A DNA stretch of 64,000 nucleotides from NCBI GenBank assembly GCA_963707305.1, contig CAVPPZ010000004.1, positions 298,590-362,589 on the forward strand. Reading direction: 5' to 3'. Positions within the stretch are counted from its first letter, which is position 1. Each line of letters starts with the position of its first letter. The notes under the pieces are model-generated. The model was not told the origin of the DNA. It worked only from the letters and a program-made list of their open reading frames with translations, and did no database searches. The translations under genes were made by a program, and so were the position numbers. This document shows positions 1-58,903 of the stretch, one piece after another. The stretch comes from an uncultured Candidatus Rokubacteria bacterium. GTDB taxonomy: Bacteria > Methylomirabilota > Methylomirabilia > Rokubacteriales > CSP1-6.

Positions 1-417
1 CGGAGGCCTTTCATGGCATCGGTGACCATCAGGTCGTCGAGCAGTGCCTGCTCGTGGCGGAGCGGCTCGGCGCCAGCGCCGAGCACGAGGCGATCGTGCG
101 GCTCCGCGTCCTCACCCAGGAGGCGCTCGACGTGCGACCGTCGCCTCGCATCGAGCCATGAGTCCCGTCTCGGGCCGCGAGCCACTGGGGGTGACCCTGG
201 CGCTCGCGCCCCTCGGCCGGCTCGCGGTGGCCACGACGTGCGCGGCGCTCGGGCTCCACCCCGATGCGCTCGTTCCGGGAGCGGCGCACATCGTCGCGCG
301 CGCGTGGACCACCACGGTTGCGGCGTGGCGACGCCTTCACCTATCATGGCCGCCCACTCGGTCACGGACCGCGCGCCTGGCCGATGGGGGACCCGTCGGC
401 AGGAGGGTGCCGAAGTC

Positions 418-3082
418 ATGCTGAGACGCGTCGCTCGTCGCCCGCTCGCAGACGTCCTCGTGATCGACGACCCGCTCCAGATGGCCGCGCTCAACGACCA
501 CCCGAACGTGAGCCGGCACGTCCTCGACGAGGGTGGGTGGCTCAACCGGCTGGTCCACCGCTGGATCTACCGCACCTTCACCGTGGGCGGCGCCCCGCTC
601 GGCGTCTTCACCGCGCACGACGACGACGCGCGGATCACGCGCCAGGAGGCGCTCGAGCGTCGTCTCAAGCAGACGGAGCCCGACGCCGACGGCGTCGCCG
701 CCCTCGCGCGCTACGTGGCCGGGGCCGAGCTCCCCGCCGACGTGGGCGTCGTGGCGCAGCAGGTGATCGGCCGGCTGTTCTTCGCCGACTACGTCGCCAC
801 GCCGGAGTCGTATCGCGCGGCCCGGCGTCTGCTGAACCCGATCTGGATCGTCTGGGCCGCGCTCACCGGTCACCGGCCACCCGGCGCCGACATCGTGTGG
901 GCCGCGGCGCGCGACGACCTCGACTGCGTCCACGCCACCGGGATCGCGGTCGGCGGAGTCGTCGACACGCTCGAGCGCATGCGCAGGCTGGCCGCCGACC
1001 GCCATCGCGGCCGGGCTCAGCAGGCCGAGTCGGCGCTGCTCCAGGCCCTCGTCGCGCCGTCGTTCCTGTTCCGCTCGTGCACGAAGGACACGATCGTCCC
1101 CTTCCTCGACCAGCCGCTGCACCGCGGGACGTTGATCGTGTTCCGCCTCCGCGCCATGTACGAGGCGGCGCGGACCACCGATCTCGCGTTCTCGCGCGGC
1201 GCCTGGAGCCGCTGTCCCGCGCACGAAGCGGTCCCGAGGCTCCTCCTGGCCGTGTGGCGCGAGGCGAAGCACGTGCCGACCCATGGGCCGCGACGCCGGT
1301 CGTGGCTGTCGCGCCTGTTCACCGCGACGTTCGAGCTGATCAACCGGGCGGTGCCCTGGCACCGGTTGCCGACGCGGCTCGGCGTGCTGAACCTGCTCGC
1401 GCTCCGCACGGTCCTCCGCGAGAAGAACCTGTACAGCACGGAGCCGCCGGCCTCGCGCGGGCGCTGCCCCATCACCGGCTGGCTGCCCCGCTACCAGCAC
1501 GAGCGGACGCCCGACGGCACCCACAACGATCTCGCGGAGCCGCACATGGGCGCGGCCCACACGCGCTTCGGTCGCGCCGTTCCGCTGGATCGGACGATCC
1601 CCGACGCGCCGCCCGCGCTGCTGACGCCGAACCCGCGCCGGATCAGCAACGAGCTCCTCGCGCGCCGGCGCGGGCGGATGATCGAGGCGCAGGCCTTGAA
1701 CCTGCTCGCGGCGGCGTGGGTCCAGTTCGAGATCCACGACTGGTTCAGTCACGGGCGCCCGGACACCCGCGACCCGTACGAGCTGCCGCTCGACGCGGAC
1801 GATCCCTGGCCGGACCCGTCCATGCTGATCGGCCGGACGCCCGCGGAGCCGCCGGACCATCCGCCGCTGCCGTCGCCCACGTATCGCAACCACGTGACCC
1901 ACTGGTGGGACGCGTCGCAGCTCTACGGGAGCACCCTCGAGACGCAGCGGCGCGTCCGTGCGGGCCGGGACGGCAAGCTCGCCGTCGTCGACGGACTGCT
2001 GCCCTGCGACCTCGTCACCCGCATCCCGGTGACCGGGTTCAACGACAACTGGTGGGTCGGCCTCGCGTTGTTCCACCTGCTGTTCACGCTCGAGCACAAC
2101 GCCATCTGCGACCGGCTGCGCGCCGAGCGGCCGGGCTGGGACGACGAGCCGCTGTTCCAGACCGCGCGGCTGATCAACGCGGCGCTCATCGCGAAGATCC
2201 ACACGCTCGAGTGGACGCCGGCCATGCTCGGGCATCCGGCCCTCCAGATCGGCATGAAAGGCAACTGGTGGGGCCTCGCCGGCGAGCGGATCCACCGGCT
2301 CCTCGGACGCATCAGCGCCAGCGAGGTGGTGAGCGGCATCCCCGGCTCGCTCGACCGACCACCACGCGGCGCCGTACGCGATGCCCGAGGAGTTCGTGTC
2401 CGTCTACCGCATGCACCCGCTGATCCCGGACCGCGTGGTGTGTCGCTCCGCGGCCACGGGCCGCGTGCAGGACCACTACACCCTCATGGACGTGACCGGC
2501 GCCGGCGCGCAGGCGGTGCTGGAGGCGACGCCGGCGACGGATCTCTTCTACTCGTTCGGCGTGTCGCACCCCGGGCAGGTCACGCTCGGCAACTATCCGG
2601 ACACGCTCCGCACGTTCCGGCGGGCCGACGACGGCGCGCTCCTCGATGTCGCGGCGATCGACGTGCTGCGCGATCGCGAGCGCGGCGTGCCGCGCTACAA
2701 CGAGTTCCGCCGGCTCTTCCACCTGCCGCGGATCGACTCGTTCGAGATGCTCAACCCGGCGTGGGCCGCGAAGCTGCGCGACGTGTACGAGAACGACATC
2801 GACCGCGTGGACCTGATGGTCGGGATGTTCGCCGAGACGCCGCCGCGGGGCTTCGCGTTCAGCGACACGGCGTTCCGCATCCTGATCCTGATGGCCTCGC
2901 GCCGCCTCAAGAGCGACCGCTTCTTCACGAGCGACTACACGGCCGATGTCTACACGCAGACGGGGCTCGACTGGATCGAGCACAACGATCTGCGCTCGGT
3001 GCTGACGCGGCACTACCCGGGCCTGCGACCGGCGCTCGTGGGCATCGAGAACGCGTTCGCGCCGTGGAACGCGATCGAGTGA
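418..3082 (+). CDS. Animal-type haem peroxidase / fatty-acid alpha-dioxygenase (PIOX/cyclooxygenase-like) with ~390-aa N-terminal extension of unknown function; single frameshift near 2340-2357
   Basis: ATG at 418 preceded by GGAGGG. Translation contains RFGRAV, LNLLAAAWVQFEIHDWFSHG (distal His helix), then in the +1 frame HHAAPYAMPEEFVSVYRMHPLIPD (proximal His region) and RGVPRYNEFRR. Frame switches from 1 to 2 between 2333 and 2357 in the run cgaccgaccaccacgcg. Frame 2 has TGA at 2330-2332. Confidence 0.75.
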
Positions 3083-3089
3083 CGATCCC

Positions 3090-4541
3090 GTGCGGGTCAG
3101 GAACTTCGGCCGGAACGTGGACTTCCAGGCGGAGGGCCTGACCCCGCGCGACGAGCTCGAGGTGCTCGACCTGCTCCGCGCGCACGCGGGCCGAACGATC
3201 CGCGCGGTCGGCGCGGCCCACTCCTGGAGCGACCTCGTGCGCAGCGACGGCCTCGTGATCGACCTGCGCCGGCTCGATCGGATCGCGGTGCATCGCGGCG
3301 GTCCGGGGGTCGCGACCGTGACCGCGGGCGCGGGGTGCCGGATCGGAGCGATCCTGAAGGCGCTGGGCGCGCACGGGCTCACGCTCCCGACCGTCGGCGC
3401 CATCACGAAGCAGACCATCGCGGGCGCCGTCTCGACGGGCACCCACGGCTCCGGCGCCAGCAGTCTCTCGCACTACGTGCGGGCCGTGCGGCTCGCGACG
3501 TACGATCCGCAGACCCGCGAGCCGACGGTGATCGACCTCGACGTGACGGGCCCCGAGCCGTCTCCGTTGCGCGCGGCCCGCTGCGGGCTCGGCTGCCTCG
3601 GCGTGATCGTGTCCGTCACCCTCGTGTGCGTCCCGGCGTACGAGGTGGAGGAGGTCCTCGACCTGCCGCGCTCGGTGCTCGAGGTGCTCGCCCTCTCCGC
3701 GATGTTTCCGCTCCAGCAGTTCGTGATGATCCCGTACGCCTGGCGGCCGTATGCCTTCCATCGCCGCCGCGCGGATCCCCGACGACGCCGCAGCCTCGCG
3801 TCCTGGCTCACCACGCGCGCCTACCGCGCGCACAAGCTCCTGACGGTCGACGTCCTCATGCACCTGCTGGTGAAGGGCCTCGCCCGCTTCGGCTCGGCAC
3901 GCCTCATCCGCGGGTTCTACCGGAAGGCGCTCCCGGCGACGGCCCTGCGCGGCCTGGCCGTGACCGATACGAGCGAGCGCACGCTCACGCTCCGCCACGA
4001 CCTCTTTCGTCACGTCGAGATGGAAGTGTTCGTCCCGGCCGCGGCGCTCGTCGAGGCGATCCACCTCGTGCAGGTCCTCACCGACGCGTTCGCCGGCGTG
4101 CGCCGCCTCTCCACGTCCGTCGAGGCGTCGCTGGCCGCCCGCGCCCCCGGCGCGCTGGCGGAGCTGCAGCGCCACGCGGGACGCTACACGCATCACTACG
4201 TGATCCCGTGCCGGCGCGTGCATCCCGACGACACCCTGATCTCGATGACCGCCGACGGCCGCGAGGCATGGGCGCTCGGGTTCTTCAGCTACGTGGGGCT
4301 CACGCCGGCGTTCAGCGCGTACTGTCGCGCGGTGGGACTGGCCCTCACCGCGCTCCACGGCGCGAGGCTGCACTGGGGCAAGTACTTCCCGCTGACGCAC
4401 GCGGAGGCCGTCGCGGACGCCTACCCCGGCCTCGCGCGCTTCCGCGCGCACTGCGCCGGCTACGACCCGGCAGGCACCTTCCGCGGCGCCGAGGTCGAGG
4501 CCACGCTCGCGCTCACAGGAGATCCGCGAAGTACGGGTTGA
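3090..4541 (+). CDS. FAD-linked oxidoreductase, FAD_binding_4 / ALO (gulonolactone-oxidase/vanillyl-alcohol-oxidase superfamily)
   Basis: GTG start 8 nt after the peroxidase stop. N-terminal RNFGRNV...GAAHSWSDL, GGVSTGTHGSG-like FAD site (ISTGTHGSGASS), C-terminal YPGLARFRA. Confidence 0.7.
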   Translation: MRVRNFGRNVDFQAEGLTPRDELEVLDLLRAHAGRTIRAVGAAHSWSDLVRSDGLVIDLRRLDRIAVHRGGPGVATVTAGAGCRIGAILKALGAHGLTLPTVGAITKQTIAGAVSTGTHGSGASSLSHYVRAVRLATYDPQTREPTVIDLDVTGPEPSPLRAARCGLGCLGVIVSVTLVCVPAYEVEEVLDLPRSVLEVLALSAMFPLQQFVMIPYAWRPYAFHRRRADPRRRRSLASWLTTRAYRAHKLLTVDVLMHLLVKGLARFGSARLIRGFYRKALPATALRGLAVTDTSERTLTLRHDLFRHVEMEVFVPAAALVEAIHLVQVLTDAFAGVRRLSTSVEASLAARAPGALAELQRHAGRYTHHYVIPCRRVHPDDTLISMTADGREAWALGFFSYVGLTPAFSAYCRAVGLALTALHGARLHWGKYFPLTHAEAVADAYPGLARFRAHCAGYDPAGTFRGAEVEATLALTGDPRSTG

Positions 4542-54978: not shown

Positions 54979-55038
54979 GATCGTAGGGCACCGCCAAATC
55001 AAGGAACTACCGGTTGGGATAGTCCAAAAACCCCTCTG

Positions 55039-55068
55039 TTGACAGGGGTTTGCGGCATCGGATAGCAT
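55039..55068 (+). promoter_or_regulatory. Sigma-70-like promoter: TTGACA - 17/18 nt - ATAGCA/TAGCAT, within an AT-richer 80-bp intergenic patch
   Basis: TTGACA at 55039-55044 is a perfect -35 and is embedded in the near-palindrome CCCTCTGTTGACAGGG. The ATG of the downstream gene is at 55080, so the leader is very short. Confidence 0.35.
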
Positions 55069-55079
55069 GTGCTGTGCAC

Positions 55080-56223
55080 ATGATCACCGTGCCGGCGCGC
55101 CGCGTCAAGCAGTTCGGCGTCGAGTTCTACCAGGCTGGACTCTCCGCGAAGGACATCGATCGGCTGGTGAAGTTCGAGGTGCTCGGCTACACCGGGCGAC
55201 GAGAAGCCCGAGCCGAAGACCAGCAAGGCCCGGACGAGCGTCCGCGCGCCGCGTCAACTGGGACAGCCTCGAGAAGCGGATCAGCGAGAGCGAGAGCGCG
55301 TACCAGCGGCCCGGTCATCCGCCGCAAGATCGACGAGCTGGCCGCCTACTACCGCGAGTGCAAGGACGCGGCGACGCTGCCCGCCATCCCGGGCGCGGTG
55401 ATCATCACCTCGGAGAAGCGGTTCACCTTCACGCCGGTCGCCGGCCACCACGACCTCGGGCTCGCTGCAGATCCCCGAGGAGCACGGCGTGCTGCGCGTG
55501 CTCGACGGCCAGCATCGCCTGCTCGCGCTGCACGCGCTCAACCAGCAGGGCGAGAACGTGGGCATCGAGGTCCCGGCCGTGCTGTTCGACTCGCTGGACG
55601 CGCGCCAGATCGTCGAGCTGTTCGTGACGATCAACGCCAAGCACACGCGGCTGAACCCGTCGCACATCATCAGCCTCGCCGGGCGCAAGCTCTATCCCGA
55701 TCCGAACCAGGCACTCGCGCACGACGTGATCCGCTCGCTGAACGAGGACGAGACCTCGCCGCTGCGTCGGCGAGATCAAGATGCTCGGCACCGGGCGCGG
55801 CCGGGTCAGCCAGGCGCCGCTGGCCGAGGAGATCGTCGACTTCCTCGAGACCGTGGAGAAGGTGGGCGACGGGCGCGCGGCTCTCCGAGATCCGCAGCGG
55901 GCGCCAAGCGCTTCTTCCTCAACTACATGAAGGCGCTCTCGACCACGTTCCCGCAGGCGTGGGTGGGCCGGAAGTACTCGATCAAGACCGGCGCCGCCCT
56001 CCGCGCGTTCATCCGCGTGGCCCCGGACGTGATGGCGCGCGCCCGCGAGCTTCGCCGCGATCCGTTCGACCTCAACGCGATCCGCGAGGCCATCAAGCCG
56101 TGGGGCGAGCGCCTGCGCGACCGCCGCTTCGAGACCGAGGGCGAGTGGAAGCTGAAGCTCGCCGGCGGCACGCGCGGCACCGTCGAAGTCCTCGGCCGCG
56201 AACTTCGCGACGCACTCCGCTGA
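55080..56223 (+). CDS. DGQHR-domain protein (DndB-like, ParB/Srx nuclease fold), standalone; 5-6 frameshifts
   Basis: MITVPARRVKQFGVEFYQAGLSAKDIDRLVKF, AIPGAVIITS, VLDGQHRLLALHAL (the DGQHR signature), LFVTINAKHTRLNPSHII, FFLNYMKALSTTFPQAWVGRKYSIKTGAALRAF. Confidence 0.7.
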
Positions 56224-56225
56224 CC

Positions 56226-56345
56226 CCGGAGGGGGGCTTCGCCCCCCTTCCGGCGGTCGTCGCGCGCCTGACGGCGCGCTCCTCCCTGCCTCCCCCAGGA
56301 GGATTGCGGCGGCAAAGCCGCCGCTCGGAATCCGCGGATCAATCG
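56226..56345. repeat. Left copy of a ~110-120-bp inverted-repeat element. Begins with the hairpin CCGGAGGGGGGC-TTC-GCCCCCCTTCCGG and contains a second hairpin GCGGCGGC-AAA-GCCGCCGC
   Basis: Immediately after the DGQHR stop. Its reverse complement matches 58780-58902 at roughly 85%, read by eye. Confidence 0.6.
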
Positions 56346-56460: not shown

Positions 56461-58650
<2,190 letters not shown>

Positions 58651-58779
58651 AGGCAGGCGGCCTGAAGCGCTCGGCGTGAGGTGCGTGATCACGTCTCGCG
58701 GTCACGCGGCCCGAGCGCGCGTCGGATCGATTCCTAGCGCTGCTCCGCCGACATCACTCCTGTTGCTCAGCGGAGCCCG

Positions 58780-58902
58780 ATGAGATCAGCAGTGTCCGAG
58801 CGCGGGCTTCGCCCGCGCAATCCTGCTGCTGGGGGGAGGCAGGGAGGAGTGCGCCCTCAGGCGCGCGACGACCGCCGGAAGGGGGGCGAAGCCCCCCTCC
58901 GG
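58780..58902. repeat. Right copy (inverted) of the repeat element. Ends with the hairpin CCGGAAGGGGGGC-GAA-GCCCCCCTCCGG and contains GCGGGC-TTC-GCCCGC with compensatory stem changes relative to the left copy
   Basis: Ends 1 nt before the stop of the convergent HDOD gene, so it sits exactly between glgB and that gene. Confidence 0.6.
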
Positions 58903-58903
58903 G

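Follow-up and report, generated by a model that had tools for sequence, protein, structure and literature searches.

The 64,000-nucleotide stretch of contig CAVPPZ010000004.1 from an uncultured Candidatus Rokubacteria bacterium, hereafter the window, contains a gene for a protein of the DGQHR-domain family, which is preceded by a promoter of its own and followed by a hairpin. The gene runs from an ATG at 55080 to a TGA at 56221-56223; the span of 55000-56223 given in the first-pass annotation of this DNA holds from 55080 onward, while 55000-55079 is promoter and not coding sequence. Public data already name the protein "DGQHR domain-containing protein", so the family is known and this member is uncharacterized. 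What is added here is the recognition of the frameshifts in the gene as artefacts, of the gene as a hyper-conserved core gene of Rokubacteria, of its own, mostly leaderless-type promoter, and of its solitary relatives. The coding sequence and the motifs within it are as follows.

55080..56223, plus strand: coding sequence of the DGQHR protein, 378 amino acids after removal of seven inserted bases
55301..55309, plus strand: YQR motif, residues 74-76, of which Q75 and R76 are invariant in the Rokubacteria clade and in distant relatives
55504..55518, plus strand: DGQHR motif, residues 141-145, invariant in all alignments
55621..55635, plus strand: FVTIN motif, residues 180-184, which opens the invariant stretch FVTINAKHTRLNPSH

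The DGQHR motif on which the first-pass annotation had relied is read in a single frame at the position listed above; VLDGQHRLLALHAL lies at 55498-55539 on the plus strand, and the peptide RVLDGQHRLLALHAL is a direct single-frame read of that strand. Across the uncorrected gene as a whole, in contrast, the frame follows the path 0>1>2>0>1>2>0>1. Comparison with clean orthologous DNA (L006 and L001) attributes this path to seven single G/C insertions, at 55196, 55247, 55313, 55463, 55764, 55871, and 55899, and to no deletions. When the seven bases are removed, the open reading frame (ORF) comprises 1137 nt and 378 codons for amino acids with no internal stop, and its product aligns without gaps to the public protein P0001 at 98.1% identity, while the exact corrected protein is absent from a collection of 15 billion proteins. 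The base-by-base check of lesions covered the DGQHR gene only. Codon-position analysis of G+C (GC) content, however, shows that the best coding frame shifts each 150-250 bp on both strands throughout all 64 kb, and the adjoining lhgO and glgB genes are broken into fragments like the DGQHR gene. Because the frame changes are window-wide and lhgO and glgB are equally fragmented, the frameshifts are a property of the sequence record and not of this gene, and the window looks as if it carries a systematic insertion error. Such errors make any ORF-based reading of the window unreliable and the window unfit for pseudogene calls. Decay of the gene into a pseudogene in the source genome could be proposed from the seven interruptions in the frame as written, but all of them are +1 insertions of G or C, the corrected frame is free of stops and 98% identical to intact proteins, every other gene of the window is equally dense in frameshifts, and the orthologs are under strong purifying selection. 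We therefore ruled out the pseudogene reading, to which we attach next to no probability, and read the seven frameshifts as artefacts of the record.

The corrected protein matches the DGQHR domain model TIGR03187 over its entire length (model positions 1-276 of 276) with 124 bits against a cutoff of 58.85 (E 9e-36), and even a hand-joined version of the uncorrected sequence scores 115 bits, so that the family membership proposed earlier survives the correction of indels. The Pfam DndB model PF14072 is also matched in the N-terminal half, with 55 bits against a gathering cutoff of 29. The more specific models behave differently: the DndB equivalog TIGR03233 (24.7 bits versus 328, residues 71-193 only), DGQHR_dnd_1 TIGR04172 (46.3 versus 450, residues 112-238), and DpdB NF041060 (50.7 versus 300, residues 71-356) all miss their cutoffs. 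The DpdB model of PADLOC aligns with residues 73-360 at E 2e-13, and among the named models those for DpdB alone span both domains. A match to GmrSD_N is non-significant (16.9 bits versus 33.2), a PHROG "ParB-like partition protein" is weakly matched at residues 71-192 (E 2.5e-6), and PF02195 (ParBc) gave no Pfam match at E up to 0.1. Pfam detects in the protein neither a helix-turn-helix (HTH) or other DNA-reading domain nor a DUF1524/HNH nuclease domain, and the EHxxP nicking motif of the SspE type is absent from it. The protein can thus be classified as a DGQHR-domain member of the ParB/Srx superfamily that falls outside all named subfamilies and whose overall architecture seems nearer to DpdB than to DndB. 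The label "DndB-like", used in the first-pass annotation, is consequently appropriate at the level of the superfamily but not as an assignment to DndB itself, given that the DndB equivalog is so distant and that the best named two-domain model is DpdB.

Invariant across clades are Q75-R76, P100, P103, D141-G-Q-H-R145, V163-P164, F180, I183-N184, T188, P226-L227, G235, Q243, E249, and W292; the QR, DGQHR, and F..IN..T elements, the last represented by F180, I183, N184, and T188, are retained from Rokubacteria to relatives that are only about 30% identical. The FVTINAKHTRLNPSH stretch is unchanged among 78 orthologs, and residues 182-203 have a predicted local distance difference test score (pLDDT) below 50 in the structure model described below. 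The isoelectric point (pI) is 9.5 for the whole protein and 9.7 for its C-terminal domain.

The gene is distributed throughout the lineage. A protein search returned more than 120 clusters with 86-96% identity and lengths of about 376-381 amino acids, named only "DGQHR domain-containing protein", and orthologs were confirmed in at least 185 stretches (one genome per species). The best 80 of these 185 stretches are 82-95% identical and nearly all labeled Rokubacteria, Rokuibacteriota, or Methylomirabilota; the remaining taxon labels are few and mostly belong to short contigs of metagenome-assembled genomes (MAGs). Orthologs 83-89% identical were observed on MAG contigs labeled Eisenbacteria, Binatia, Acidoferrum, Verrucomicrobiia, and Limnocylindria (L029, L030, L034, L060, L061, L078, and L081), which probably represent mis-binned Rokubacteria sequence and not gene transfer. 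The median identities to the proteins of locus L001 place the DGQHR protein above the products of the neighboring genes.

DGQHR protein: 86.8%
MaoC: 84.2%
TrmI: 80.7%
GreA: 79.5%
aminotransferase: 75.8%
HpcH: 74.9%
lhgO product: 67.8%
SurA: 61.8%

In paired comparisons the DGQHR protein was always the more conserved one, with the exception of 7 of 54 pairs with MaoC, and its gene shows the smallest nonsynonymous divergence (dN) of the eight genes compared, 0.091 (dN/dS, the ratio to synonymous divergence, 0.15). Among 78 distinct orthologs, 214 of the 378 positions never vary and 284 are conserved at 90% or more; the sole variable stretch is a K/E/P-rich linker at residues ~37-58. A search of viral contigs with back-translated patterns, which reach close relatives only, found no close relative. 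The lineage-wide spread, the low dN, the invariance, and this lack of a close relative on viral contigs argue for a core gene of Rokubacteria that is highly conserved and passed on vertically, and not for a defense gene.

Upstream of the coding sequence lies a promoter whose elements were compared over 82 distinct orthologous upstream regions (81 for the upstream box).

55004..55016, plus strand: upstream box GGAACTACCGGTT (GAACTACCGGT box), 35 nt before the -35 hexamer, a possible regulator site
55026..55052, plus strand: conserved promoter block, a consensus over the 82 upstream regions
55026-55030, plus strand: A-tract belonging to the promoter block, followed by CCCCTCTG
55039-55044, plus strand: -35 hexamer TTGACA, exact in 75 of the 82 regions
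55045-55052, plus strand: conserved start of the spacer, GGGGTTTG
55063..55068, plus strand: -10 hexamer TAGCAT, 18 nt past the -35 hexamer and 11 nt before the ATG

In a promoter scan, TTGACA-18-TAGCAT agreed with the sigma-70 consensus at 10 of 12 positions, and the scanned region contains two such sites where chance would give 0.1; the earlier description of a -10-like hexamer almost abutting the ATG is borne out by this near-consensus promoter and the 11-nt gap. The consensus of the upstream regions, gAAAAccCCtCTgTTGACAGGGGTTTG, carries about 1-2 bits at most positions of the block, and can be extended to the -10 hexamer as gAAAAccCCtCTgTTGACAGGGGTTTGc..aTCa..TAnanT; farther upstream the sequence shows no conservation. 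The arrangement TTGAC[ATG]-17/18-TAnnnT occurs in all 82 regions, and the motif has one copy in the window and at most one per related locus. The upstream box, with the pattern [GA]A[AC]CT[ATC][CA][ACG]GGT (core form GAACT[AT]C[AC]GGT), is present in 22 of 81 regions, in each case at a distance of 35-37 nt upstream of the -35 hexamer, against a background rate of 0.004 per 200 nt, and may be either a regulator site or merely a sign of shared subclade ancestry. The promoter area, which had been called unusually AT-rich, deserves this description in relative terms, as its GC content of 0.50-0.54 compares with a window mean of 0.705 and is the lowest of five such dips in 64 kb, but not in absolute terms.

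The distance from the end of the -10 hexamer to the ATG is 6-11 nt (mode 9) in 61 of the 82 regions, and no Shine-Dalgarno sequence was seen in those short-leader regions that were inspected by eye. Such a distance implies a leaderless or near-leaderless mRNA, which would accordingly be made in most lineages, that of the source genome included. In 19 of the 82 regions a leader of 49-65 nt with a GGAGG Shine-Dalgarno sequence is found instead, and in two the leader measures 20-21 nt. Two 5' architectures thus stand behind one promoter, as is seen when loci L061-L085 are compared with L001-L060, and this pattern would mean that a single orthologous gene has switched between leaderless and leadered initiation of translation.

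A near-palindrome, AAACCCCT..AGGGGTTT, extends over the -35 hexamer and had been pointed out before together with the perfect TTGACA. It is conserved as sequence, but its right arm is replaced by AAGTACTT, CGTACTT, or GACATTT in some lineages while the left arm is unchanged, and its predicted fold is weak (free energy, dG, -11.2; z -1.4). Given the lack of covariation between the arms and the weak fold, there is no support for a hairpin at this site, and the interpretation of the near-palindrome as an RNA or DNA hairpin or as a terminator of lhgO was rejected, also because the motif accompanies the DGQHR gene where another gene lies upstream. The conserved sequence might possibly be an operator for a protein, a role that is as yet unproven. 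A perfect 7-bp inverted repeat over the start codon, CATGTGC-TGT-GCACATG at 55066-55082, was likewise set aside as a chance occurrence, since no ortholog has it and its fold is unremarkable (z -1.6); insertion errors possibly inflated it.

The surroundings of the gene are of a housekeeping type. Pfam searches of frame-corrected pseudo-proteins from 257-38289 returned metabolic, transport, and regulatory families only, among them heme peroxidase, CoA-transferases, acyl-CoA dehydrogenases, enoyl-CoA hydratase, and an HMG-CoA lyase-like family as well as TerC, parts of ABC transporters, Dus, LemA, and response regulators, and PADLOC found nothing but a GlgB model in 38523-63972. In these scanned parts of the window there are no dnd, dpd, ssp, brx, or other defense genes, and no dndCDE or dndDE, dpdA, dpdC, or other partner was found in the window scans or in the annotated related loci (L001-L005). 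A parA gene is likewise missing among the annotated neighbors of the related loci and from the Pfam results for 257-38289, the part beyond 38.5 kb having been covered by PADLOC only. Neither the window nor three related loci yielded a match to an Rfam family. Orthologous loci are partly syntenic, with genes for an aminotransferase, ADH, HpcH, MaoC, in some cases a metallophosphatase, and lhgO upstream, and GreA, MaoC, SurA, and TrmI downstream in differing gene order in 42-56 of 81 loci. An operon with lhgO was considered and ruled out, because the DGQHR gene has its own promoter and lhgO adjoins it immediately upstream in only 27 of the 76 loci with room for lhgO. The first-pass annotation was therefore right in seeing no recognizable partner gene, and a comparison across genomes leaves the annotated related loci equally partner-free, but the context of defense or mobility that it implied gives way to a vertically inherited core gene in a housekeeping neighborhood, one more conserved than that of GreA and without a close relative on viral contigs. 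As an observation apart, a set of ORFs at ~257-3403 on the plus strand matches the animal heme peroxidase family PF03098 (E 6e-59), which is unusual for a bacterium.

Solitary occurrence is not confined to the Rokubacteria clade. An exhaustive search of representatives at 50% identity gave 1100 matches at E up to 1e-3, among which only a handful of full-length relatives fall outside the main cluster, at 52, 47, 44, 37, and ~30% identity; these distant relatives are likewise solitary amid ordinary genes where their context is readable. With the most distant group as seed, a scan of metagenomes yielded 80 loci (L091-L170), and the sister clade of solitary DGQHR proteins that they represent, ~30% identical, is frequent in soil metagenomes. 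No recurrent neighbor was found in this sister clade, the top family occurring in at most 10 of 78 loci. The commonest neighbors are the genes for pyruvate kinase (pyk), phosphoglycerate kinase (pgk), transketolase (tkt), GAPDH (gap), and an AcrB pump, and one subgroup lies inside a glycolytic cluster in which the DGQHR gene separates tkt-gap-pgk from pyk (e.g., L118, L147, and L153).

Several known systems can be set beside this protein. DpdB, the ParB-fold ATPase of Dpd 7-deazaguanine DNA modification, resembles it in size, in the combination of an N-terminal ParB-like domain containing QR and DGQxR with a helical C-terminal domain, in the extent of the aligned models, and in lacking a nuclease motif; it differs in the low bit score, in having DGQQR where DGQHR is found here, and in belonging to a mobile restriction-modification island, whereas the present gene is a core gene of one lineage with no dpdA, dpdC, or dpdD-K nearby. 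DpdB forms a homodimer with DNA-stimulated ATPase activity; its C-terminal domains have been modeled around a DNA-sized tunnel, and its DGQQR motif, analogous to the GxxRxxA box of ParB, marks the ATPase domain (PMC10164549). DndB, the regulator of dndBCDE phosphorothioation, shares the DGQHR motif and the Pfam match in the N-terminal half, and the inverted-repeat-like sequence of the promoter recalls its autoregulation, since DndB binds palindromic inverted repeats of its own promoter (PMC4507180). It has been described as repressing the dnd operon in an ATP-dependent manner, and a DndB-like protein binds ATP and GTP (bioRxiv 10.1101/2025.10.10.680097). Unlike DndB, the present protein has no dndCDE nearby, its equivalog score is low and limited to residues 71-193, and the repeat arms show no covariation. 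SspE, GmrSD, and BrxU, which join a DUF262 NTPase to a DUF1524 nuclease, have a ParB-fold N-domain with DGQ(Q/H)R, and in SspE DGQQR is needed for nucleoside triphosphate (NTP) hydrolysis and EHxxP for nicking (PMC10164549); here the DUF1524/EHxxP domain is lacking, GmrSD_N stays below its cutoff, and the context is not one of defense. Finally, the CTPase clamps ParB, Noc, and KorB (PF02195) belong to the same superfamily, are chromosomal and conserved, and carry the GxxRxxA box to which DGQHR is analogous, and the weak PHROG match points in the same direction. By analogy with them, an NTP-gated DNA clamp would be plausible here, while the differences are that PF02195 is not matched, that neither an HTH nor a parS-binding domain was detected, and that parA is not adjacent.

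The identity of the gene, its family membership, its conservation, its solitary context, and the architecture of its promoter form the established part of the picture. On this basis, the explanation that we consider on balance probable as a whole is that of a functional core DGQHR gene, with frameshifts due to errors of the record and a promoter of its own, which encodes an NTP-gated, non-nuclease DNA-binding switch. The gene would be transcribed monocistronically from its strong, conserved near-consensus sigma-70 promoter, the N-terminal pocket formed by QR, DGQHR, and FVTIN would bind and hydrolyze a nucleoside triphosphate, and NTP use would gate both the closure of a dimer and the binding of DNA by its C-terminal domain, which is basic and helical. 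On the host chromosome the protein would then serve as an NTP-dependent DNA-binding switch or clamp, as a regulator or accessory factor of a DNA transaction, and neither a nuclease role nor membership in a defense island would be expected. An NTP-gated dimeric DNA-binding switch seems the most likely function because the pocket motifs are kept, the nuclease element is absent, and the protein is basic, and the host chromosome seems the likely substrate because the gene is core, solitary, and placed in a housekeeping context.

Several points weigh against this explanation. The AlphaFold2 monomer model, built from a 15-sequence alignment, has a region rich in beta structure at the N terminus, a mixed alpha/beta core with DGQHR, and a C-terminal domain made up entirely of helices, but is of moderate quality (pLDDT 77; predicted template modeling score, pTM, 0.49), with low confidence at residues 37-55 and 182-203. 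A Foldseek comparison with the PDB returned nothing significant, the top match being BrxU of the GmrSD family at E 0.29, and no PDB entry was matched by sequence or by profile; since no solved structure is matched significantly, the geometry of a ParB-like pocket rests on family precedent. Because the scores for DpdB and DndB lie far under the cutoffs, transfer of their mechanism is an extrapolation, and NTPase activity, dimerization, DNA binding, and the cellular role are all ascribed to this clade by analogy. The leaderless mRNA, for its part, is deduced solely from promoter geometry. Lastly, an unlinked partner enzyme might possibly exist elsewhere in the genome.

The last point leads to the view that the protein is a ParB-fold accessory subunit of a DNA-modification system encoded elsewhere, either as a DpdB-like helper of a DpdA/TGT-type transglycosylase or as a DndB-like regulator of phosphorothioation. 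Among the named models matched at full length, those for DpdB are indeed the best, and DpdA and DpdB form no stable physical complex (PMC10164549), so that genetic linkage would not be mechanistically required. Nevertheless, all three equivalog cutoffs are far off, neither the window scans nor the annotated loci L001-L005 contain a partner, no neighbor family recurs in the sister clade, and the gene is syntenic, occurs throughout the lineage, and ranks with the best-conserved genes of its region, whereas Dnd systems are sporadic and horizontally spread (PMC8569181). We thus regard an accessory subunit as unlikely. A sequence-specific transcription factor, i.e., an NTP-modulated repressor of the DndB type that autoregulates via AAAACCCC...GGGGTTT over its own -35 hexamer and possibly controls other genes, would follow the precedent set by DndB at the inverted repeats of its promoter (PMC4507180). 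It would also account for conservation around and after the -35 hexamer in excess of the two hexamers, for the restriction of the -35 motif to the DGQHR gene within each locus, and for the second box at a fixed distance upstream in part of the loci. The constancy of the left arm beside a varying right arm and the absence of an HTH or other DNA-reading domain from the Pfam results speak against such a repressor, and a strong promoter with an UP-like A-tract could explain the conservation equally; this makes it rather improbable in our estimation. The possibility of a stand-alone anti-phage effector, an SspE/GmrSD-like NTPase-nuclease or a nucleotide-depleting ParB-fold enzyme, is suggested by the use of ParB-fold and DUF262 proteins in several defense systems, by the weak GmrSD_N match, and by BrxU as the top, albeit non-significant, fold match. 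It is very hard to reconcile with a protein that has no DUF1524, HNH, or EHxxP nuclease element, no defense neighbors in PADLOC, no place in a variable island, and no close relative on viral contigs, and that shows conservation and synteny of a housekeeping type, unlike typical defense genes, and we give it only a slight chance.

DGQHR/DndB-type ParB-fold proteins are usually set in mobile defense or DNA-modification islands, while the clade described here behaves as a core gene of a whole candidate phylum. Returning to the NTP-gated switch, one tentative and rather doubtful extension is that the solitary DGQHR/ParB-fold protein serves as a housekeeping NTP-gated chromosomal factor, e.g., a nucleoid-organizing or global regulatory clamp, in Rokubacteria and, separately, in some soil lineages, as represented by the pgk-pyk sister gene. 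If this were true, a branch of the DndB/DpdB proteins would lie outside defense and DNA modification and would be among the most constrained proteins of its lineage, and if the protein is an NTP-gated housekeeping DNA switch, the ParB-fold repertoire would gain a chromosomal function related neither to segregation nor to defense. On the latter condition, the 378-amino-acid protein would also be a tractable subject for studies of solitary DGQHR function.

The 3' side of the gene is marked by the following feature.

56225..56296, plus strand: G+C-rich hairpin region, terminator-like but without a T-run, which opens 2 nt past the stop codon of the DGQHR gene

The RNA fold of 56215-56265 is strong (dG -36.2 kcal/mol, z -4.4), and L006 retains the first 3' hairpin, with changes in either half of its stem. 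The presence of such a hairpin after the stop codon makes the DGQHR gene look monocistronic. The same region forms one arm of a 72-nt inverted repeat (56225-56296 and 58832-58903, 97% complementary) that flanks glgB (56461-58665). As glgB is absent from the matching position in all 85 related Rokubacteria loci, the glgB segment looks like a lineage-specific insertion or an invertible segment bounded by a duplicated terminator element. The right arm of the repeat ends at the stop codon of a convergent HDOD gene, and the similarity of the two arms, which are the only two copies in the window, runs on for ~105 nt and takes in a further hairpin that shows paired changes.

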